DNA from: Nakamurella sp.
Lineage (GTDB): Bacteria > Actinomycetota > Actinomycetes > Mycobacteriales > Nakamurellaceae
DNA: 64,000 bases
Direction: 5' to 3'
Assembly: GCF_048594475.1 (NCBI RefSeq)
Contig: NZ_JBMDXT010000162.1
Coordinates: 2,093-66,092, forward strand
Each line of letters starts with the position of its first letter. Position 1 is the stretch's first letter. Under the pieces are notes generated by a model. That model had not been told where the DNA came from and searched no databases. It was given only the letters and a program-made list of their open reading frames with translations. The position numbers were made by a program, and so were the translations under genes. Below, piece by piece: positions 8,101 through 43,061 of the stretch.

Positions 8101-8790
8101 TCAGCCGCGGCGGGCGGGAATCGGATCGTCGGGCCGGAGCAATCCGCTCTTGTAGGCCACGGCCACCGCCTGGGCCCGGTCCCGGAGCCCGAGTTTGGCG
8201 AAGATCCGCCCGACGTGGGTCTTGGTGGTGCCTTCGCCGACGACCAGATGGTCGGCGATCTCGGCGTTGGACAGCCCGTGCGCGATGAGCACGAGCACCT
8301 CGCGTTCGCGCGGGGTCAGCACGCGGACCTCCTCCGGTCCGGGCAACTCCGACGGCGGGTGCGAGGCGAACTCGTCGATCAGTTGCCGGGCGACGGCCGG
8401 ATCGAGCCAGGCCTCCCCGCCGGCGACCGCGCGGACCGCCGCCACCAGTTCGGTGGGCGCGGCGTCCTTGAGCACGAACCCGCGCGCGCCGGCGCGCAGC
8501 GCCGCGTACACGGCCTCGTCGACGTGGAACGTGGTGAGCACCAGCACCTTGGGCGGATTGCCCGTCCGGTGCACGTCGCCCAGGATGCGGCGGGTGAGTT
8601 CGACGCCGTCCATCCGCGGCATCCGCACGTCGGCGATCACGACGTCGGGCCGGCGCCGGCGCACCAGGTCGACCACCTCGGGACCGCCGTCCAGATCGGC
8701 GATCACCTCGATGTCACATTCCCCGGCCAGCAGCAGCGCGATCCCGGACCGGACGATGGGCTCGTCGTCGACCACGAACACGGTGATCAC
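8101..8790 (-). CDS. NarL/LuxR-family response regulator
   Basis: Receiver domain (VFVVDDEPIV, PDVVIADVRMPRMDG, VLVLTT) plus LuxR HTH (LTPREREVLVLIAHGLSNAEIADHLVVGEGTTKTHVGRIF). 4-nt overlap with the upstream kinase gene. Confidence 0.95.
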   Translation of the reverse strand: MITVFVVDDEPIVRSGIALLLAGECDIEVIADLDGGPEVVDLVRRRRPDVVIADVRMPRMDGVELTRRILGDVHRTGNPPKVLVLTTFHVDEAVYAALRAGARGFVLKDAAPTELVAAVRAVAGGEAWLDPAVARQLIDEFASHPPSELPGPEEVRVLTPREREVLVLIAHGLSNAEIADHLVVGEGTTKTHVGRIFAKLGLRDRAQAVAVAYKSGLLRPDDPIPARRG

Positions 8791-10112
8791 CGGCCGGCCC
8801 CCTCGACCGTCCCTCCGAGGATGCCGGTGACCGGCCCCAGGGGCGCGCCGGACGGCCCGGTGCCCGCCGGCAGCCGGGCGGCGACCCGGAAGCCGCCGGC
8901 GCCGGTCGGCCCGGCGGAGAAGTCACCGCCGGCGATGGCCACCCGTTCGCGCAGGCCGGCCAGCCCGTGCCCGCCCATCTCCGCGGGCGGCTGAGGTCCG
9001 CCGGCGGCCGATCGGACCCCAATGCCGTCGTCCTCGACGGCGACCGTGACCTTCTCCGGCTCCCACTCGATCGTCACGGCGACCCGGGCGCCGGACCCGA
9101 GATGCTTGGTCACGTTGGTCAGCGCCTCCTGGATCAGCCGGTAGGCGGCCAGGTCGACGCTGGCGTCCAGGCGGTGCGGCTCGCCGGTGATCTCCAGCGT
9201 CGCGGTGACCCCGGACGACCGCACCGCGGCGAGCATCGGATCCACCTGGGCCAGCCCGGGCGTGGTCGCCCCGCTGCTGGCCACCGCGTCGGACTCGCGC
9301 AGCAGCGCGAGCAGGCGGCGCAGCTCCCCCATCGCCCGCTGGCCGGAGTCCTCGATGAGCGAGAGCGATTCGACGGCGCGATCCGGATCGGACCGCACGA
9401 CGCGCTGGGCGCCGGCGGCGTGCAGGACCATGATCGTCACCGAGTGGGCGACGATGTCGTGCAGCTCCCGCGCGATGCGCAGTCGCTCGACCGAGACCGC
9501 CTGGTCGGCGATCTGCCGCTGCTCGGCGACCTCGTGCTGGTGCGCGGCCTCGATCTCGTCCAGCCGACGCTGGTGCCGGCCGGTCCACCAGCCGAACGTC
9601 CAGGCCAGGACGGCTCCGGACCCGTAGAAGACGGTCGCGCCGACCGCCGAGGTCAACCGGCCGGATGCCGACGCATGGACCACGGCGCCGCCGATCAGCA
9701 GCGCGACGGGCACCGCCGCGGCCACCAGGCACCAGAGCGAGACCCGCGGCGGGCGCAGCTGGGCGACCGCCGCCAACGCCACCATCGGGACCAAGTACGG
9801 GAAGTAGTACTCGGTGGCCAGCAGCGGCGGCACGGACAGCACCACGGCGGCGACGAACACCGGAACCGGCTGCCGCCAGCGCAGCGCCAGCAGGGCGATG
9901 CCGGCCGCCGCGTACACCAGGATGGCGATCCGGTCGGCGACGTCGACCCCGTCGACGCGCAGGAGGCGGGAGAACACCAGGACGTCGGCGAGGAAGACCA
10001 GCGGGAGCACGATCAGGTCGATACGGTGCGTGATTCCCCAGCGACCCGGTCGGGTCGCGGCCGGCCCCTCGCCCGACCCGGTCAGCACAGCCACCAGAAG
10101 ATAGTGCACCAA
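8787..10112 (-). CDS. HisKA_3-type sensor histidine kinase with multi-TM N-terminus and no large external loop
   Basis: H-box RIARELHDIVAHSVT. HATPase motifs QEALTNVTKH, VEDDGIG, GHGLAGLRERV. About 5 closely spaced TM helices. Start is TTG 10112 or GTG 10109, inside the end of the upstream gene. Confidence 0.9.
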   Translation of the reverse strand: MVHYLLVAVLTGSGEGPAATRPGRWGITHRIDLIVLPLVFLADVLVFSRLLRVDGVDVADRIAILVYAAAGIALLALRWRQPVPVFVAAVVLSVPPLLATEYYFPYLVPMVALAAVAQLRPPRVSLWCLVAAAVPVALLIGGAVVHASASGRLTSAVGATVFYGSGAVLAWTFGWWTGRHQRRLDEIEAAHQHEVAEQRQIADQAVSVERLRIARELHDIVAHSVTIMVLHAAGAQRVVRSDPDRAVESLSLIEDSGQRAMGELRRLLALLRESDAVASSGATTPGLAQVDPMLAAVRSSGVTATLEITGEPHRLDASVDLAAYRLIQEALTNVTKHLGSGARVAVTIEWEPEKVTVAVEDDGIGVRSAAGGPQPPAEMGGHGLAGLRERVAIAGGDFSAGPTGAGGFRVAARLPAGTGPSGAPLGPVTGILGGTVEGAGR

Positions 10113-10579
10113 TCGAAGGGATCGGCCGTCACGACCTTCACCGGAATGGCGGCCGGTCGGTCGGGTCCGGTCGCCGGCGACGGGATCGGTGCCGGTTCAC
10201 CCCCGGCGTGCACGCCCAGCTCCCGCAGGGTCGACCACATGGACCGACCCTCGCGCCAGGCCCGCTCGAGGGCGGCCCGCGGAACGACGACCGACACGGC
10301 GGACGGGACCGGCTCGGCCAGCCGGACCATGGCGACCTGCCCGGCCGGCGGCACCGACCGGTCGGCGGGCTCCGCGATCCGTTCCTCGATCAGCAGGATT
10401 TCCGCGACCGGCCACGCCGCGCCGTCGACGACGACCACGAGGTCGCCCGGCGGTTCCAGCAACCGGCCCGGCTCGACGTGGGCGACGAACGCGTCCCGGT
10501 GCAGCAGCACACCGGGCCAGCGGGCATCCGCCGCGGCCGAGAGCAGCCAGCCGCGCGGCGCTGCACCGTGGTTCGACAA
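10082..10579 (-). CDS. Hypothetical 165-aa protein, first gene of the kinase/regulator unit; ends in Trp/Cys-rich DWCTIFWWLC
   Basis: TTG start preceded by GGGAGG-N6. GC3-rich throughout. No known family recognised. By hand alignment it resembles the C-terminal about 200 residues of the 885-aa protein at 38501-41158. Confidence 0.65.
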   Translation of the reverse strand: MSNHGAAPRGWLLSAAADARWPGVLLHRDAFVAHVEPGRLLEPPGDLVVVVDGAAWPVAEILLIEERIAEPADRSVPPAGQVAMVRLAEPVPSAVSVVVPRAALERAWREGRSMWSTLRELGVHAGGEPAPIPSPATGPDRPAAIPVKVVTADPFDWCTIFWWLC

Positions 10580-11114: not shown

Positions 11115-11159
11115 GTCGGACCGTCAGCTCGTCGGACCGTCAGCCGGTCGGACCGAACC
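11115..11159. repeat. Tandem GTCGGACCGTCAGC units spanning the stop codon of the reductase gene
   Basis: Copies at 11115-11128 and 11131-11144, plus a partial copy at 11147-11159. The second copy contains the TGA (11140-11142, minus strand) of the CDS 11140-11910. Confidence 0.75.
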
Positions 11160-11910
11160 GTTCGACCCGGACGTCGGGCGACGGGCAGCCCAACTCCACA
11201 AGCAACTGGCTGGCGAACTCGGCAAAACCGGCCGACCCGCAGACGAAGGTGGTCTCGTGGCAGGTGGCCAGCGGGCGCAGCTCGTCCACGGTCAACCGGC
11301 CGGCCGGACGGTCGCCGTGCGGCTCCCGGCTGAGCGCGATGAGGGCGCCGGCCGCCGCGAGCTCGTCCGGGAACGGCAGGTCGGCCAGCGTGCGGGCGGA
11401 CACGGCCAGTTGCAGCAACCCCGGCCGGCCCAGCGCCTGCGCGTGCCGCAGCATCGCGATCAGCGGGACCGCGCCGCTGCCGCCGGCGACCCCGATCGCG
11501 GGCATCGCGCCATCCCAGACGAACCAGCCGCCGATGGGCCCGCGGACCTCCAGTTCGTCGCCCGGCGCGACCTCGTCCGCCAGGAAGGGCGAGACCTCGC
11601 CGTCGGGAATGCGCTCGATCCACAGCTCGACCAACGGATCGGACGGCGGGGATGCCACCGAGTACGAGCGTTGCGCGGTGTACCCGTCGGGTGCGCGCAG
11701 GCGCACGACGTAGTGCTGGCCGGGCAGGTGATCGATGCGGTCCCGTACGTCGAGCCGGAGGATCACCGCGTGCGGCGTCGGGTGCATCACCTCGCGGACG
11801 GTGGCCGTGGTCCACCGTCCGGTGGGCGCGGGCGCGAACGCCGGCACCACCCCACCCGGAGCCATCGCCGAGCCGGCCGGCTCCCCGGCCGCCGAACCGG
11901 TCTCAGTCAC
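11140..11910 (-). CDS. FAD/NAD(P)-binding ferredoxin-reductase-type oxidoreductase
   Basis: ORF 11140-11910 (GTG). FNR-like motifs: RSYSVAS (RxYS), GGSGAVP, FVCGSAGF. 8-nt overlap with the upstream Moco-enzyme gene. Confidence 0.85.
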   Translation of the reverse strand: MTETGSAAGEPAGSAMAPGGVVPAFAPAPTGRWTTATVREVMHPTPHAVILRLDVRDRIDHLPGQHYVVRLRAPDGYTAQRSYSVASPPSDPLVELWIERIPDGEVSPFLADEVAPGDELEVRGPIGGWFVWDGAMPAIGVAGGSGAVPLIAMLRHAQALGRPGLLQLAVSARTLADLPFPDELAAAGALIALSREPHGDRPAGRLTVDELRPLATCHETTFVCGSAGFAEFASQLLVELGCPSPDVRVERFGPTG

Positions 11911-12508
11911 CCTGGTACCGCTGTTCCAGCCAGGGGTCGCCGCGGTCGTGGTAGCCGTTCCGTTCCCAGAAGCCCTGCTGATCGTGGTCCAGCAGGGTGA
12001 TCCGGGAGATCCACTTGGCCGACTTCCAGAAGTACAGGTGCGGCACCAGCAGCCGGACCGGACCGCCGTGATCGCGGGGCAGCGGCCGGCCCTCGTGGGT
12101 CCAGACCACCCAGGCCTTGCCGCCGGTGACGTCGGCCAGCGGCAGGTTCGTGGTGTACCCGGTCGACGAGGTGGCCAGCACGAACTGCGCGTCCGGCCTG
12201 GGTCCGGCGGCCGCCAGCAGCGTGTCGACGCTGACCCCGTCGAAGCTGGTGGCCAGCTTCGACCAGGTCGTCACGCAGTGGATGTCGCCCTCGTACCGGG
12301 AGGCGGGCAGCTCGTGGGCCTGCGCCCAGGTCCACGTGGTGGGGGTGTCGACCAGCCCGTCGACGGTGATCGTCCAGCGCTCGGGCTCGATGCGCGGGGT
12401 GACCTCGGCGGTCAGCACCGGCCAATCGGCGCCGACGTCGTACTGGCCCGGGGGCAGGCGCGGATCGCGCTGCCGCCGGCCGGTGAAGCCACGGGTGATT
12501 CCGGCCAA
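11903..12508 (-). CDS. Sulfite-oxidase-family molybdopterin-binding oxidoreductase
   Basis: Last 201 codons of ORF 11903-13813. TTG 12508 is preceded by AGGAGG-N5. Motifs: GDIHCVTTWS (Mo-ligand Cys context) and GGPVRLLVPHLYFWKSAKW. Confidence 0.85.
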   Translation of the reverse strand: MAGITRGFTGRRQRDPRLPPGQYDVGADWPVLTAEVTPRIEPERWTITVDGLVDTPTTWTWAQAHELPASRYEGDIHCVTTWSKLATSFDGVSVDTLLAAAGPRPDAQFVLATSSTGYTTNLPLADVTGGKAWVVWTHEGRPLPRDHGGPVRLLVPHLYFWKSAKWISRITLLDHDQQGFWERNGYHDRGDPWLEQRYQGD

Positions 12509-12576
12509 CGCACCTCCTGGAGCTTGCTCGGCGCGTCCATCATCCCCGACGCCGCCGGCGCCCCGGCAGGCGGTGA

Positions 12577-14106
12577 TCAGCGCGGCTTGATGTGCGGCGT
12601 CAGGACCGGGCAGGCGGCGCAGCGCAGCGCCGGGTCCTCGTGCTCGTGCGGTTCCTCGGCGGCCTCGCCGGTCGCCACCGGGGCCGGGTTGCGGATGGTG
12701 AGCAGCGCGAGCAGTCCGCCGGCCGCGCAGACCGCCCCGGCGATCAGCACCGCCCGGTGGAACCCGGCCGAGATCGACGCGGGGTCGCCGTACGCGGCCG
12801 GGCTCAGGCCGGCCAGGGCGGGCAGCACCGCGACCGCGATCAGGCCGGCGACCCGGGCCACGTCGTTGTTGATCGCCGACGCGACGCCGGCCTGGTGGTC
12901 CGGCGCGGCGGCCAGCACGGTGGAGGTCAGGGGGGCCACGGTGATGGACAGGCCGAGACCGAACAGCAGCATCGGTCCGACGACCGCGCCCAGGTAGGTG
13001 GCTCCGGCGTCCACCCGGGACAGCCAGACCATGGCCAGCGCGGCGACCAGCGGGCCGACCGTCATCGGCAGCCGGGGTCCGATCCGGGCCGACAGCCGGC
13101 CCATCCGGGCCGACAGCAGCAGCATCACCACGGTGATGGGCAGGCTCGCCGCGCCGGCCGCGACCGGGCTGAACCCGGCGACCAGCTGCAGCTGCACGGG
13201 CAGCAGGAACAGGGCGCCGGCCAGCGCGGCGTAGACCGCGAACGTGACCAGATTGGCCGCCGTGAACTGCCGGGACCGGAACAGCCCGAGCGGCAGCAGC
13301 GGCTCCGCGGTCCGGCTCTCGACCAGCACGAACACGCCCAGCAGGAGGGCTCCCGCCACGGTGATCGCGACGGTGACCGCCGGCCAGCCGGTGGCCGGTC
13401 CCTCGGTCAGGCCGTACACCAGGCCACCCAGCCCGACCGACGCCAGCACCGCGCCGGGCACGTCCAGCCGGCCGGTCGCCTGCTCGTCGCGCGACTCCGG
13501 GACGAACCGGCGCGCCAGCACGATCACCACCACGGCGATCGGAACGTTGATCAGGAAGACCAGCCGCCAGCCCCACGGCGCCAGACCCACCAGCACCCCG
13601 CCGACGATGGGACCGAGGGCGGTGGCCACCCCGCCCAGCCCGGACCAGGCGCCCACGGCGGTGGACCGGTCCTCGCGGCGGAACGAGGCCTGGAGGATCG
13701 CCAGCGACCCCGGCGTCAGCAGCGCGGCCCCGGCGCCCTGCAGGGCGCGCATGGCGATCAGCGCGCCGGTCGTCGGGGCGACCGCGCACCCGACCGAGGC
13801 CAGGGTGAACCACAGGACGCCGGCGATGTAGACGCGCCGCCGGCCCATCCGGTCACCCAGCGAGCCGCCGAGCAGCAGCAGCCCGGACAGGGTCAGCGTG
13901 TAGGCGTTGAGCGTCCACTGCAGCGCGGTCAGCCCGCCGCCCAGATCCTCGCCGATCCGGGGCAGCGCGACGTTGACCACCGTCCCGTCGAGCATGGCCA
14001 GCCCGCTGCCCAGCACCGTCGCGGTCAGCACCCACTTGCCCCGGGCCGACGCGTAGACCAGCGCCACGGGCGGGTCCGCCCGGCTCCCGGTGTCCTGACC
14101 CGCCAC
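12577..14106 (-). CDS. MFS transporter, DHA2 family
   Basis: Within ORF 12577-14361. GTG 14106 (GGAGGG-N6) chosen; ATG 14217 is possible. Signatures: LPRIGEDLGG and NAYTLTLSGLLLLGGSLGDRMGRRRVY. Confidence 0.85.
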   Translation of the reverse strand: MAGQDTGSRADPPVALVYASARGKWVLTATVLGSGLAMLDGTVVNVALPRIGEDLGGGLTALQWTLNAYTLTLSGLLLLGGSLGDRMGRRRVYIAGVLWFTLASVGCAVAPTTGALIAMRALQGAGAALLTPGSLAILQASFRREDRSTAVGAWSGLGGVATALGPIVGGVLVGLAPWGWRLVFLINVPIAVVVIVLARRFVPESRDEQATGRLDVPGAVLASVGLGGLVYGLTEGPATGWPAVTVAITVAGALLLGVFVLVESRTAEPLLPLGLFRSRQFTAANLVTFAVYAALAGALFLLPVQLQLVAGFSPVAAGAASLPITVVMLLLSARMGRLSARIGPRLPMTVGPLVAALAMVWLSRVDAGATYLGAVVGPMLLFGLGLSITVAPLTSTVLAAAPDHQAGVASAINNDVARVAGLIAVAVLPALAGLSPAAYGDPASISAGFHRAVLIAGAVCAAGGLLALLTIRNPAPVATGEAAEEPHEHEDPALRCAACPVLTPHIKPR

Positions 14107-37831: not shown

Positions 37832-38500
37832 GTGATTCCTCCAGGGGCCGTCGAGGTGGCTGGTGCATGGGTGCGGGACGGGGAGCCCGGCCGGACGGCG
37901 TGTCCGTCGGGGCCCCGGGGTCAGCGGGAAATTGGATTCCGCCCATTCCGGGGGCGGTACCGAGTTCCGGGCCGGCGTAGCCCGGAGGTGCTGGTCGTAC
38001 CGAAAAGCAGATGCTCGAGCGGGCCGATTTCCGCTCGGACGGGAAACGGCCCGGCCGGGTGCGCTCAGAGAGCAGCCCGAATGTTTCCGGGGCCGGCCCG
38101 GGCGGTCATCACCGGTGGTGGCTCAGCTGTCCATCGCGTGCCTCCAGTAAGAACCCGACGCAGCCGGTCGGCTCACTCGATCGTGTCGAACCATCCGGTC
38201 GAGGTCATCATTTGTCCGGATGATCCCTTCCGTCCGACCCCGGGAGGACGGAGCGCATCACCCTCGCCGCGCGATCGGTGGTCCTCACCGATCACACAGT
38301 TCGTTCCGCATCGATTCCCAGCTCCAACGGCGCGCCGTGCGCCCGCCGTCCTACCGGAGCACGACGGACAGGTCCTTCCTGCGGACGACGCGCTCGCGGC
38401 CCGACCTCGCGAGTATTGGTCCGATCGACGAGCGTGGATCGCCCTGCGAATCCAATGAGCCTTGTGCGACGATTAATCCTTGGTGTCCGATTGGGGGTTC

Positions 38501-41158
38501 ATGATGAGCAATGCGATGAACTGCGTCCCGAAGGCCAATCAGCCGGACGACCGCGGTGAATGGGTCACGGGCCGGTACCTGGCCGACAACGGACGCTGGT
38601 TCGTCCAGCTGCGGATCGGCGCCGGCCGACGTCCGACGGTCAGCGCCGACCTTCAGGTCCGTGACGGGTCGAGCCTGATCGAGCTGTCGATGCTCGCTCG
38701 ATCGCCGGACGCGGCCCCTGCTCGGCCGGGCGGCACCCAGGACATCGAAAGCGACGCTCCCGAGGAGGCGTGGCCGCAGCCTGAACGGGAAGCCGTCTTC
38801 GCCGACGGACGGGGCGCGCTGTCGTCCGGGAAGGTCCGCGTCGACATCGTCGACCACGGGCTTGTCGACGTGACCTTCACTCTCGGACGGGGCCTGGCCG
38901 GGCTTGTCTCCGGGTATTCGGTGACCCTCAGAGCCGCCCGGGTGAGCACGGCACTGCGCGACGTCGGGCTGGAGGTCGAGTACGAGTCGGGCGTGGAGAG
39001 GTATTTCACCGATGAACTGCACGACGCCAAGTCAGCTCTCGAGAAGGTTTTGCATCAAGCGGGTCTGGACATCCACGAGGTCGGTCGGCGCACCGTCATC
39101 GACAGTCCCCCCGGCGGGGCATGGTCGGCGTCGGACGTCTTCACCGCCCTGAACAATCAGCTGCGAGCCGCGGCCCAATCCCCACTGACATCGCCGGTGT
39201 GGGAACTGCACCTGCTGCTGCTGTCCAAGAGCAGCCGGGACGGCCTGCTGGGCATGATGTTCGATTTCGCCGATGATCTGCCTCGACAGGGCGCCGCGGT
39301 ATTCGTCGAAGCGGTCCACGACAGTTGCCCGGACAAGAAGGATTCACCGACGCGAATCCTGGCCACGGCGGTGCACGAACTCGGACACTGCCTCAATCTC
39401 ACCCACCGCTTCACCCGCGACGTGGGGCGGGCGGACTCCCTGTCGTTCATGAACTACGACTGGGTCTATCGGGGTGGGCGGCACGCCGACCAGTACTGGC
39501 GGGATCGGCGCGACCCACTGTCGGAGGATCCCGGTCCGAACGCTCCCCGGAGACGGACGTTCGACGACGACGAGCTCGAGTTTCTGCGCCACGGACCTCG
39601 CTTCGAGGTCATCCCGGGTGGTGCTCCATTCGGATCGGCCCGCTACTGGATCACCGCCGATGGGGGGTCGGCCGATCTACCGGTCCATCCCGATCCAGGT
39701 CTTCACCTGTGGCTGACTCCACCGGTCACCGGCACCCGGTTCAACTATCTGGACCCCGTCTTCCTCCAGGTCTCACTGCGGAACAAGGGTGGATCAGCTC
39801 GCCGCATGCCCCGGTATGCGCTCGACACGAAGGCGGGCCTGCTCGACATCGTCATCCGACGGCGCGCGGCGCCGGGACGGGGTGCCGCTTCGGACGGTGA
39901 CCTCTTCGTGCCGTTCATGCGCCGCTGTTTCAGCGTCACCGGCTCCCAGGAGATCGTGCTCCAACCGCGGGAGTCCCTGCACAACAACGTGAATCTGACG
40001 TTCGGCTCGGCCGGCTTCCCGCTGGCGGAGCCGGGGGAATACCTGATCACGCCCTTGCTGACATTGTTCGACGTTGATCCGAGCGTCGAGGGGCGACCGA
40101 GCCTGACGGTGGTTCAGGGTCCGGAACTCGCCATCACCATCGACCCCCCGGACACCCGGGCCCGCGAACGCGATGCCGACCTCGTCCTGCGCAATGACGT
40201 GGGCGCCAGCTTCGCGCTCGGCGGCGCGGACTGTCTGCTGGCGGCGACCGAGACGCTGCAGATGCTCGTCGAGCGACGCGATCGTGACGATCGGGGCGGT
40301 CGCCCGGACGGGCTGCGGGCCGCCGCCGCCCGCGTGGTGGGGCTGAACGCACTTCGCCACGATCGGGGCGGCGAGGCGGCCCGATGGCTGAGAGTCGCCA
40401 CCGAGCCGACGTCGCTGGCGACGTTCGACCCGCACACCGCCGAGCACACGAGACGGATGGCCGCGAAGCGAACGGCCGCGCGGAGAACCGACACGGCCTA
40501 CCTGGACCTGACGGTGCAGGTCACCGAGGAGACCCGCCAGCGCAAGCGTCCGGTACCGGGCGTTCTCGTGTCGCAGGACGTCAAGATGTCCAGCGGTCGC
40601 CCGGGGAGCCTTCTGGTGGTCGACGCCACCACATTCGCCGGCGATCCGGTGGTCCGCGCCCAGGCCGTCGTCTCGACCGACGAGGGCAGCACCGAGACGG
40701 TCACTGTGCGGCAGATCGACGTCTTCGGCGCCGTCGGCGACAGCGGTCGGACCACCTCCGGTGACGGGGGACCCGGCCCGGTGGCCGTCGCCTATCTGGA
40801 CCGGGTCCTGACCGGCGGCGGGTCGGCCGCGAAGGTCGATCTCGGGGTCCTTCGCTCCGATGTGGGACGGACGGCGGACGGTGTGCGAGGCGTCCTGACC
40901 CGGGCCGGCCTGGAAATCCCATCTGCGGATGACGATCTCGACGCCGGCCCGTTGCGCGTGGTCGCCGCCGCGGGCCACGCAGCACCCTGGGACGGCAATG
41001 ACGACGGGTCCGCCCCGGCCCAGGAGGTGCGCAGCGAGTCCTACATCTGGCACAAGGCGGCCTGGAAGTGGTGCTGGTTTCTCAACATCTGTCACGAGGG
41101 GCCGCCCGACCCGTACGCCAGCGGTGAGTCCGGCCCGGACCGCCCCCCGGACGCATGA
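38501..41158 (+). CDS. 885-aa multidomain protein with metzincin-type HExxHxxxxxH motif and no signal peptide
   Basis: ORF 38480-41158; ATG 38501/38504 follow GGGGG. HELGHCLNLTH at 39374-39406, then SFMNYD. Hydrophilic N-terminus. C-terminal WKWCWFLNIC at 41066-41095. GC3-rich throughout. Confidence 0.85.
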   Translation: MMSNAMNCVPKANQPDDRGEWVTGRYLADNGRWFVQLRIGAGRRPTVSADLQVRDGSSLIELSMLARSPDAAPARPGGTQDIESDAPEEAWPQPEREAVFADGRGALSSGKVRVDIVDHGLVDVTFTLGRGLAGLVSGYSVTLRAARVSTALRDVGLEVEYESGVERYFTDELHDAKSALEKVLHQAGLDIHEVGRRTVIDSPPGGAWSASDVFTALNNQLRAAAQSPLTSPVWELHLLLLSKSSRDGLLGMMFDFADDLPRQGAAVFVEAVHDSCPDKKDSPTRILATAVHELGHCLNLTHRFTRDVGRADSLSFMNYDWVYRGGRHADQYWRDRRDPLSEDPGPNAPRRRTFDDDELEFLRHGPRFEVIPGGAPFGSARYWITADGGSADLPVHPDPGLHLWLTPPVTGTRFNYLDPVFLQVSLRNKGGSARRMPRYALDTKAGLLDIVIRRRAAPGRGAASDGDLFVPFMRRCFSVTGSQEIVLQPRESLHNNVNLTFGSAGFPLAEPGEYLITPLLTLFDVDPSVEGRPSLTVVQGPELAITIDPPDTRARERDADLVLRNDVGASFALGGADCLLAATETLQMLVERRDRDDRGGRPDGLRAAAARVVGLNALRHDRGGEAARWLRVATEPTSLATFDPHTAEHTRRMAAKRTAARRTDTAYLDLTVQVTEETRQRKRPVPGVLVSQDVKMSSGRPGSLLVVDATTFAGDPVVRAQAVVSTDEGSTETVTVRQIDVFGAVGDSGRTTSGDGGPGPVAVAYLDRVLTGGGSAAKVDLGVLRSDVGRTADGVRGVLTRAGLEIPSADDDLDAGPLRVVAAAGHAAPWDGNDDGSAPAQEVRSESYIWHKAAWKWCWFLNICHEGPPDPYASGESGPDRPPDA

Positions 41159-42372
41159 TGACCAGGCACCCGGGCGCCCCGTCACGGCTGCGGTCAGTCG
41201 GTCGGCCGCCGCCGTGGAGCGACATCGGGCTGGCGACCGTCCTGTTCGTGGTGGATACGCTGGTGTTCTCGTCGATCACCGTGGTCAGCCAGGGCGGCGT
41301 CCCGGCGCTTCTGCTGAGCATCGGGGTCTTCGCACCGCTCGCGTGGCGGACGATCGCACCCGTGCGGGTCTTCTTCGTCGTCTGGTTCTTCACGGTGTCC
41401 GCGGCGCTGGTCGTCCCGGAGCTGAGGCCGGTGCTCGCCCTCCTGGTCGCCACCTACACCATGTCGAGCAGGACGGACTTGCGGACATCACTGCTGGCAC
41501 CCGCGCTCGCCGTCCCGACCGGAGGTGTGATCGCGGTCAGCGCGGAGCTCGATCAGAACCCCGAGATGCAGGCGTGGACCATCGCCGTCAGCGTCGGCGT
41601 GCTCGTCGGCCTGCTCAATCTCGCGCCGTGGCTGCTCGGCCGATGGGTCTACGCAAGCCGATCCGCGGTGGCGGCTCTCGAACTGGCTCGACAACGCGAA
41701 GCCGAACAGGCCCGGGTGGAGGAACGCCGGCAGATCGCCCTGGAACTCCACGACATCATCTCGCACTCCGTCACCGTCATGGTGCGGCAGGCCGACGGCG
41801 CCCGCGCGGTCCTCGGAGGCGACCCCGCCGCGGTCGCCAATTCCCTCGAGCTGATCGCGAAGGTGGGTCGTGATTCCATCGGCGAGTTGCGACGTCTGCT
41901 CGGTGTGCTGACCGATGGAACGCTCGCGCCGGTCGCGAGTGAGGCCGCCGGACTCGCCGATCTGACCACGGTGATCGACGACGCCGAGCGGGATGGGCTG
42001 CGGGTACGCCTGCAGGTCAGTGGCCGCCAACCGCCCGTGCCCGACAGTTTCGAGCGCACCGTCTTCCGGATCGTTAAGGAAGGTCTGGTCAACGCCCGCA
42101 AGCACGGCGGGCATGGCAACCGGGTGACCGTGCAGATGTTCTGGAGCGACAGCGTTCTCGTCCTGACGATCGCCGACACCGGCGGGCAACCCGACTCCGA
42201 CGCCTCGTTGTCGACGGGGAACGGTCTGAACGGATTGCGGGAACGAGTCCGGGCGAGCAATGGTCGGCTCGACGCCGGGCCGGGCCCGGACGGGGGCTTC
42301 GCCGTGACCGCGACCCTTCCGATCCCGCCGACGGCCACGCCGGTGACGACGGCGGGAGGCAGCCAGCCGTGA
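41155..42372 (+). CDS. HisKA_3-type sensor histidine kinase with multi-TM N-terminus and no large external loop
   Basis: ATGA overlap with the upstream gene. H-box QIALELHDIISHSVT. HATPase motifs KEGLVNARKH, ADTGG, GNGLNGLRERV. About 5 closely spaced TM helices. Confidence 0.9.
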   Translation: MMTRHPGAPSRLRSVGRPPPWSDIGLATVLFVVDTLVFSSITVVSQGGVPALLLSIGVFAPLAWRTIAPVRVFFVVWFFTVSAALVVPELRPVLALLVATYTMSSRTDLRTSLLAPALAVPTGGVIAVSAELDQNPEMQAWTIAVSVGVLVGLLNLAPWLLGRWVYASRSAVAALELARQREAEQARVEERRQIALELHDIISHSVTVMVRQADGARAVLGGDPAAVANSLELIAKVGRDSIGELRRLLGVLTDGTLAPVASEAAGLADLTTVIDDAERDGLRVRLQVSGRQPPVPDSFERTVFRIVKEGLVNARKHGGHGNRVTVQMFWSDSVLVLTIADTGGQPDSDASLSTGNGLNGLRERVRASNGRLDAGPGPDGGFAVTATLPIPPTATPVTTAGGSQP

Positions 42373-43061
42373 CGGTGCGCGTGCTGGTGGTCGACGATCA
42401 CGCGCTGATCCGCACCGGCCTGGCGATGCTGTTGAACGCCCAGCCTGACATCCAGGTCGTCGCCGAGGCCCGGGACGGAGCCGAGGCGATCGCCATGGCC
42501 GCCGAGCATCAGCCCGACGTCGTCCTCATGGACGTCCGGATGCCCGGGACCGACGGGGTCACCGCCACGAGGCATCTTGTCCAGGAGCCCGACGATGTCG
42601 ACCACCTCGTCAAGGTGATCATCCTGACGACCTACAACGCCGACGACGCCGTCTACGCCGCGCTCCGCGCCGGGGCATCCGGGTTTCTGCTCAAGGACGC
42701 CGAGCCGGACGAGCTCATTCGCGCCGTCCGTGCGGTCGCCGCCGGCGACGGGTGGCTCGATCCGTCCGTCGCCCGGCGGTTGATCTCCGAGTTCCGTTCC
42801 CGCCCGGACACGAACCTGGCGCCGTCGGACGCACTCGCCCAGCTCACTGCGAGAGAGCGTCAGGTGCTCATTCTCATGGCCCACGGGCTGACAAACGACG
42901 ATCTCGTCGAACGTCTCACCGTCGAGATGACGACCGTCAAGACACATGTCGGACGAATCCTGATGAAACTGGCCGTCCACGATCGCGCGCAGGCGGTCGC
43001 AACCGCCTATCAGCACGGACTGGTCCGACCCGGTGATCCCCCGCCCCGCTATGGCGGGTAA
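42369..43061 (+). CDS. NarL/LuxR-family response regulator
   Basis: GTGA overlap with the kinase gene. Receiver motifs VLVVDDHALI, PDVVLMDVRMPGTDG. HTH LTARERQVLILMAHGLTNDDLVERLTVEMTTVKTHVGRIL. Confidence 0.95.
   Translation: MTVRVLVVDDHALIRTGLAMLLNAQPDIQVVAEARDGAEAIAMAAEHQPDVVLMDVRMPGTDGVTATRHLVQEPDDVDHLVKVIILTTYNADDAVYAALRAGASGFLLKDAEPDELIRAVRAVAAGDGWLDPSVARRLISEFRSRPDTNLAPSDALAQLTARERQVLILMAHGLTNDDLVERLTVEMTTVKTHVGRILMKLAVHDRAQAVATAYQHGLVRPGDPPPRYGG

Follow-up and report, generated by a model that had tools for sequence, protein, structure and literature searches.

A Trp/Cys-ended accessory domain shared by two HisKA_3 kinase-NarL regulator modules of Nakamurella, stand-alone in one and fused to a large protein in the other

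A 64,000-nucleotide (nt) stretch of DNA from Nakamurella sp. (RefSeq assembly GCF_048594475.1, contig NZ_JBMDXT010000162.1, positions 2,093 to 66,092 of the forward strand; here called the window; 72.6% GC) encodes two three-gene modules, each made up of an accessory gene, a gene for a HisKA_3-type histidine kinase and a gene for a NarL-type response regulator. The accessory region of module 1 is the C-terminal part of a large protein, and that of module 2 is a complete small protein of 165 amino acids (aa). Profile-profile comparison shows that these two accessory regions are homologous. The domain family to which they belong is new; the kind of system in which it occurs, an accessory protein together with a HisKA_3 kinase and NarL regulator, is known. 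The features of the two modules are as follows.

38480..41158, plus strand: large protein of module 1; 892 aa from TTG 38480, or 880 aa from ATG 38516 (the database call, P0029)
40493..41092, plus strand: accessory domain, fused copy; residues 660-859 of the 880-aa protein, from hhalign to the small family
41063..41092, plus strand: WKWCWFLNIC motif (W-x-C-x5-C), from the translation
41155..42372, plus strand: histidine kinase 1; Pfam DUF7134, HisKA_3 and HATPase_c, and hydropathy
42369..43061, plus strand: response regulator 1; Pfam receiver domain and GerE/LuxR helix-turn-helix
10082..10579, minus strand: stand-alone accessory protein of module 2, 165 aa; GC content at third codon positions (GC3) 0.89
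10085..10114, minus strand: DWCTIFWWLC motif (W-C-x6-C) at the extreme C-terminus of the small protein, from the translation
8787..10112, minus strand: histidine kinase 2; multi-pass membrane N-terminus, HisKA_3 and HATPase_c (Pfam and hydropathy)
8101..8790, minus strand: response regulator 2; Pfam receiver domain and GerE

Each module is a translationally coupled three-gene operon. Direct reading of the junctions bears out the gene order and overlaps described in the initial annotation of this DNA: the large protein and kinase 1 share an ATGA overlap, kinase 1 and regulator 1 a GTGA overlap, and kinase 2 and regulator 2 likewise a GTGA overlap; the candidate starts of kinase 2 (TTG 10112 and GTG 10109) fall within the final ten codons of the small gene. 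GC3 is of the coding type (0.83-0.94) in all six open reading frames (ORFs) of the two modules. No further kinase or regulator of the same type was found elsewhere in the window, and promoter and terminator scans were uninformative at this GC content.

Homology of the two accessory regions

Because pairwise BLASTP of the large against the small window protein is not significant (E 0.03), homology was tested at the family level. The small protein has 28 homologues, and when 1.84 billion representative proteins were scanned in full with HMMER, only 35 clusters of its family emerged. A protein search with the superfamily alignment, the candidate list of which was filled to its cap, gave at least 14 matches, all of them small-family members already among the 28. 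The large protein has 109 homologues, the majority of which are 620-700 aa long and end after a helical domain (short forms); about 20 are 835-965 aa long and carry a C-terminal extension (long forms). Single-family hidden Markov models (HMMs) searched against the window ORFs did not link the two accessory proteins. Two alignments were therefore compared as profiles: A1, with 26 sequences of the small family (the window protein plus 25 homologues that share 33-79% identity with it), and A2, with 17 C-terminal extensions from long forms. Alignment of A1 to A2 by hhalign gives a probability of 94.5%, an E-value of 7.4e-8 and a score of 54.0 over 139 columns. As controls, 40 column-shuffled versions of A2 score at most 15.6 and the reversed alignment scores 13.5; with control scores this far below 54, composition does not explain the match. 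A further protein, P0158, is included in neither HMM and is matched by both, at 1e-12 by that of A1 and at 4e-11 by that of A2. The representative search also recovered three intermediate small proteins (P0166, P0159, and P0160); two other sequences that it returned, P0162 and P0168, were discarded as repeat artefacts with long repetitive matches.

The similarity that had been noticed by eye between the C-terminus of the large protein and the whole small protein is thus significant by profile-profile comparison, with controls and with P0158 as a bridge. The hand alignment behind it holds in part: the pairs PGVLVSQD/PGVLLHRD, LTRAGLEIPSAD/LRELGVHAGGEP, and WKWCWFLNIC/DWCTIFWWLC are confirmed, but the GSLLVV/GDLVVV block is one strand out of register and the pairing of LRVVAAAG with VKVVTAD is unsupported. 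A convergent or compositional resemblance, with a shared neighbourhood that reflects duplication of the kinase-regulator pair only, might be argued from the lack of a direct link between the window proteins in BLASTP and single-family HMM searches and from the Ala/Pro/Gly/Val-rich composition of both regions. Such a resemblance is extremely improbable given the score of 54 against at most 15.6 in 41 controls of the same composition, the bridging protein matched by both HMMs, the invariant Cys positions, and the order of secondary structure elements, which agrees between two independent AlphaFold2 (AF2) models in register with the alignment.

The motif that ends the domain differs in spacing and context between the two forms. 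In the large protein C-x5-C is followed by a 21-residue Pro-rich tail up to the stop codon (41156-41158); in the small protein C-x6-C stands at the extreme C-terminus. Throughout A1, residues W157, C158, F161, W162, W163, L164, and C165 are invariant, and the ending W-C-(T/D/N)-(I/V)-F-W-W-L-C is essentially so. The 17 long forms conserve [VL]-A-x-W-x-C-x5-C, after which comes a Pro-rich or acidic tail. All members of a superfamily alignment of 29 diverse sequences have the first Cys, and at least 90% have the second. Among the intermediate proteins, P0166 ends in PWCLIFPWKC-NPHDPG and P0159 in VFCKLCPWWC-MPHDPHGDPEPP, while P0160 (410 aa, from JGI contig 3300041965) contains a tandem duplication of the accessory domain, the copies ending in NWICAVTPLCEDPEEPEDP and RWFCGATAACDGG, each with a separate W-x-C-x5-C motif. 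Bridging members can have denser Cys motifs, for example CxxCxCC.

The tails of the long forms vary as well. Many (P0030-P0060; A2 columns 300-330) carry a third Cys within their Pro-rich tail, often preceded by Gly ('GC'); the tail of the window protein is shorter and has no third Cys. One long form, P0039 (898 aa, on a 512 kb contig), has an extension with an Arg-rich end in place of the Trp/Cys motif and looks like a frameshift or pseudogene.

The AF2 model of the small protein, made from the family alignment, has a mean predicted local distance difference test (pLDDT) of 83 and a predicted template modelling score (pTM) of 0.82; it consists of six strands, two helices, one further strand, and a final helix that holds the Trp/Cys motif. 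The fused copy is built of a beta-barrel, two or three helices, a strand, and the Trp/Cys helix. Its modelled elements (strands E680-687, E698-703, E712-720, E726-737, and E756-761, helix H787-796, strand E839-842, and helix H843-856) come in the same order as in the small protein, and the hhalign alignment pairs them in register. Foldseek comparison of the small model with the PDB returned chymotrypsin-fold serine proteases for all of the top 50 matches, at marginal E-values of 1e-3 to 1e-2; these include the isolated N-terminal-barrel chains 1kdq_A and 2cha_B, with template modelling scores (TMt) of 0.44-0.48. By eye, the strand motifs G-V-L-I..D-x-V-L-T and A-L-L-x-L also resemble those of the PA clan. 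In contrast to PA-clan peptidases, which have two barrels and a His/Asp/Ser triad, the accessory domain has one barrel and no match to Pfam Trypsin; no His, Asp, or Ser is invariant in the 29-sequence alignment. The likeness is a structural one only, to the N-terminal barrel. A tentative reading is that the domain derives from half a trypsin fold and is catalytically dead; it is kept tentative because the structural match is marginal and the strand motifs are as read by eye.

Scans of the accessory proteins and ten diverse relatives against Pfam and NCBIfam gave no match, in agreement with the earlier description of the domain as uncharacterised. Neither a signal peptide nor a membrane helix is seen in the accessory-domain proteins, and a cytoplasmic location is therefore predicted for them. 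A PDB sequence search with the superfamily profile produced a summed match to three identical CW_7 repeats of Cpl-7 lysozyme, which was rejected at about 8 bits per repeat. The site of this match is a helical hairpin, DRAAV..AW..G...W..L..LGVVP, at residues ~98-125 of the small protein (window 10220-10290, minus strand); no single repeat (PDB 5i8l) is significant and Pfam CW_7 is not matched, which makes the hairpin a lead at most.

Kinases, regulators and their genomic association with the domain

Both kinases are HisKA_3-type sensor kinases in which HisKA_3 (54.8 and 59.9 bits; cut-off 24) is followed by HATPase_c (30 and 39 bits; cut-off 26.4). DUF7134 is matched at 42 bits in kinase 1 and is not detected by Pfam in kinase 2. 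Hydropathy places five or six hydrophobic segments in the first 165-185 residues of each kinase, with the H-box within about 30 residues after them, and neither Pfam nor hydropathy gives any sign of an extracytoplasmic or cytoplasmic sensor domain in either. The tightly packed membrane helices, short loops, and absence of a sensor domain are those of intramembrane-sensing kinases, the type to which the initial annotation had assigned them. Both regulators belong to the NarL/FixJ family (Response_reg 102 and 86 bits; GerE 56 and 61 bits).

The regulators are paralogous, as had been proposed, with 52% identity (E 2e-80), and the kinases, in addition to their common H-box and transmembrane layout, are 36% identical over the catalytic core (E 3e-35). 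Comparison across genomes groups the kinases by accessory type: kinase 1 is 40-50% identical to the long-form kinases of other genomes vs 32% to kinase 2 of its own genome, and kinase 2 shares 55-74% identity with other small-type kinases. Regulator 2 clearly belongs with the regulators of the small type (71-92% identity); for regulator 1 the trend is marginal, with 58-60% identity to long-form regulators, 52% to regulator 2, and at most 55% to other small-type regulators. Regulators of both types are at least 52% identical throughout. Since kinases and regulators group by accessory type across genomes, the two module types are old lineages that evolve separately, and in each of them the accessory type is inherited together with its kinase and regulator. 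A common origin of the whole triad is plausible.

The initial annotation had proposed that the domain occurs beside such kinases either alone or fused to a protease-like body, and a census of neighbourhoods agrees. In all four long-form loci examined (the window; L007, on the same contig as L011; L008, from Kineococcus; and the P0060 locus), the next gene on the same strand, 0-100 nt away, encodes a DUF7134/HisKA_3 kinase, and a NarL regulator gene comes after it; the flanking genes of the four loci are unrelated to one another. In contrast, none of 36 short-form loci (L009, L010, and L012-L045) has the kinase-regulator pair, and these loci have no separate accessory gene either. Two neighbouring ORFs, one following the Nonomuraea short form and one preceding the L005 gene, are not related to the accessory domain.

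Most stand-alone homologues are directly upstream, on the same strand and at a distance of 0-100 nt, of a kinase gene, followed by a regulator gene where the contig continues (L001-L006, L046, L050-L052, L054, L055, L058, L060, L061, and L063). In L047 and L048 the downstream fragment corresponds to a DUF7134-like membrane N-terminus, and the P0160 locus has a downstream gene of 434 codons, the size of a kinase, and a regulator gene. The genes that flank the modules differ among kinase-linked loci. Judged by the named sources of its homologues, the accessory family is found in Nakamurella, Microlunatus, Kineococcus, and uncultured Actinomycetota. One clade is the exception (L062 and L064-L070; L064-L070 are at least 73% identical to one another and L062 is 47% identical to them) and appears to have lost the kinase-regulator pair. 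Its member L070 (3812-4429 and flanks) is otherwise syntenic with module 2, in the order Oxidored_molyb, FAD_binding_6, small gene, and convergent membrane protein. The association with the kinase is strong and, as the pair is present in 4/4 long-form vs 0/36 short-form loci, follows the domain and not the protease body; it is not obligatory.

Possible roles of the accessory domain

Several known systems combine an accessory protein with a HisKA_3 kinase and a NarL-type regulator. In LiaF-LiaS-LiaR and VraT-VraS-VraR of Firmicutes the accessory gene is directly upstream of the gene for an intramembrane-type HisKA_3 kinase, and LiaS and VraS, like the kinases described here, have no extracytoplasmic sensor domain. 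The analogy with LiaF-LiaSR that had been drawn in the initial annotation is sound in this logic only. LiaF is a membrane protein with a family domain of its own, whereas the present accessory family is actinobacterial, has a different fold and no visible membrane helix, and, in the small protein and ten relatives, matches nothing in Pfam or NCBIfam; the LiaS model matches the kinases at 37 bits (cut-off 450), over the catalytic core only. In NreA-NreB-NreC of Staphylococcus, a soluble cytoplasmic accessory protein modulates signalling by a HisKA_3 kinase to a NarL-type regulator. NreA is a GAF protein and NreB a soluble PAS/Fe-S kinase, in contrast to the trypsin-like half-barrel and membrane-embedded kinase here. 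In ComX-ComP-ComA of Bacillus, a small gene whose product has an important C-terminal Trp-containing peptide is upstream of the genes for a polytopic HisKA_3-type kinase and a NarL-type regulator. The literature searched for DUF7134 and for accessory proteins of actinobacterial HisKA_3 kinases held no relevant paper.

A kinase without a sensor domain has to receive its input either through the membrane or from a partner, and we lean, if only slightly, towards the reading that the accessory domain is a cytoplasmic input or accessory subunit of the intramembrane-type kinase encoded downstream. The coupling of domain and kinase is an inference from their genomic arrangement, and physical interaction, dimerisation, and a role of the Cys pair are likewise predictions. 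Through translational coupling, the subunit would be made stoichiometrically with the kinase. It could then dock on the cytoplasmic face of the kinase membrane bundle by way of its hydrophobic Trp/Cys helix, probably as a dimer; a dimeric working unit is hinted at by P0160, in which the domain is duplicated in tandem upstream of a kinase-sized gene and a regulator. The docked domain would modulate autophosphorylation or phosphatase activity of the kinase, and the NarL-type regulator would in turn set transcription. The conserved Cys pair would be the likeliest sensing element, responding to thiol oxidation, electrophiles, or metal binding. In module 1 the domain would tether a cytoplasmic metzincin-like protein to kinase 1, such that the state or substrate of the protease feeds signalling or the protease is held at the kinase. 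A more specific version is doubtful: that the half-barrel with its WC-x5-6-C ending constitutes a new class of cytoplasmic thiol-based sensor subunit that plugs into the DUF7134 bundle, with metzincin activity coupled to signalling in the fused form.

Several observations weigh against a cytoplasmic input subunit of this kind. The clade L062, L064-L070 keeps the small protein and its WCDIFWWLC ending with kinase and regulator genes absent within up to 4 kb, so the small protein can persist without an adjacent kinase. The AF2 model of the small protein packs the Trp/Cys helix on the domain (pLDDT ~85), and the helix may therefore be part of the structural core instead of a docking or membrane element. 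The two Cys residues are at positions i and i+6/7 of the modelled helix, a geometry unlike that of a simple intramolecular disulfide, and the match to the trypsin fold is marginal (E ~1e-3, TM ~0.4).

The kinase-less clade is also what would be expected if the accessory protein were output or cargo, that is, if the two-component system autoregulated its operon and the effector (a membrane-active Trp-rich protein, or a protease with a localisation domain) acted independently of the kinase. Fusion of the domain to an apparently intact metallopeptidase, and the Oxidored_molyb and FAD_binding_6 genes upstream of the small gene in several Nakamurella-like loci, point the same way. We nevertheless regard this as unlikely: the accessory gene is tightly coupled to the kinase start and keeps its first position across unrelated contexts, the short protease forms have recruited no kinase, and the kinase and regulator lineages co-diverge with accessory type, as is expected of interacting partners more than of cargo. 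A further alternative takes the C-terminal Trp/Cys peptide as a signal of the ComX or AgrD kind, cleaved off its precursor (in the large form by the fused metzincin), perhaps cyclised by way of Cys, exported, and sensed in the membrane by the kinase. With a precursor-like gene ahead of those for a polytopic HisKA_3 kinase and NarL regulator, the gene order is like that of comX-comP-comA, the motif stands at the extreme C-terminus of the small protein, and bridging members have the denser CxxCxCC-like motifs. This alternative is very unlikely, since the motif stays invariant where identity falls to ~30% in the remainder of the protein, the opposite of pheromone systems with their hypervariable peptides; the 'leader' would be a folded domain of 150-200 aa, in some cases at the end of a protein of ~835-965 aa, and in the model the motif forms an integral helix; long forms carry the motif internally, ahead of a tail; no signal peptide is present; and the examined neighbourhoods have no ComQ-like gene and no other conserved gene for processing, modification, or export.

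Many actinobacterial HisKA_3 kinases have no more than a membrane bundle, and for their input a conserved, translationally coupled partner with an invariant Cys/Trp motif is a concrete candidate. If true, the thiol-sensor reading would supply the missing input for at least one branch of these 'sensor-less' kinases. The same domain occurs free, duplicated in tandem, and fused to a metalloprotease-like protein, which makes paired comparison possible, and two diverged modules in one genome provide a natural test of partner specificity. Two families that have no Pfam model need to be defined, namely the trypsin-barrel-derived signalling domain and the widespread metzincin-like family of 620-700 aa. 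The direct reach of the findings is limited by the small size of the accessory family (~35 clusters in the scan of 1.84 billion representative proteins).

The body of the large protein and genes adjoining the modules

The AF2 model of the large protein (pLDDT 84.8, pTM 0.87; 880-aa numbering) comprises an N-terminal beta-sandwich (19-157), a metzincin-like domain (171-380), a second beta-sandwich (390-542), a helical domain (548-653), and the C-terminal accessory unit (660-856). The metzincin-like domain (~39026-39655) contains a zinc-binding motif.

39374..39406, plus strand: HELGHCLNLTH zinc-binding motif of the metzincin-like domain, from the translation

Downstream of this motif, SFMNYDW is a candidate Met-turn, and among 50 homologues H287, E288, H291, N294, H297, S308, S310, M312, N313, and Y314 are invariant. 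The assignment as metzincin-like is suggested by this pattern (HExxHxxNLxH followed by SxSxMNYDW, to be compared with the HExxHxxGxxH zinc site and Met-turn of metzincins such as M43 pappalysin and archaemetzincin) and by weak matches, all below cut-off: Pfam Peptidase_M43 at 13.5 bits (cut-off 23), archaemetzincin at 15 (cut-off 145), and, in Foldseek, PAPP-A, fragilysin-like MP-II, and ADAMs. Foldseek matches of the full protein to GH3 glucosidases were rejected as spurious multidomain matches (root-mean-square deviation ~20 Å). The body differs from known metzincins in having Asn for the usual Gly, in its four-domain, ~640-aa cytoplasmic architecture, and in having no Pfam model. No signal peptide is visible in the sequence, and the large protein is apparently cytoplasmic. 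Its short form (620-700 aa; window equivalent 38516-40474; L009-L045) is a widespread family that has no Pfam model and is found in Actinomycetota, Chloroflexota, Proteobacteria, Planctomycetota, Bacteroidales, and Myxococcales. The short form is also cytoplasmic in appearance and has the invariant HExxHxxNLxH and SxSxMNYDW motifs, with two beta-sandwiches and a helical domain in the AF2 model.

Upstream of module 2, across a gap of 560 nt, window 11140-13813 (minus strand) contains a confirmed FAD_binding_6 gene, and genes for Oxidored_molyb and a major facilitator superfamily (MFS) transporter are assigned there by synteny with L001 and L070. The pair of Oxidored_molyb and FAD_binding_6 genes accompanies the small gene in L070 and in L001-L004, which are related loci; L006 has the MFS gene only upstream, and all three genes are absent from L005 and from the large-protein modules.

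A gene for a sigma factor of the extracytoplasmic function (ECF) type (Sigma70_r2) adjoins the module in otherwise unrelated loci (L008:11838-12476, L047:4297-4875, L048:1567-2145, and the P0060 and P0160 loci); in the window there is no ECF sigma gene like those beside the other modules. The sigma factors of L008 and L047 are related (E 2e-23), and an ORF of 86 aa precedes the sigma gene in L047 and L048. An ECF sigma factor may be a recurrent target or partner of these accessory-kinase-regulator systems.

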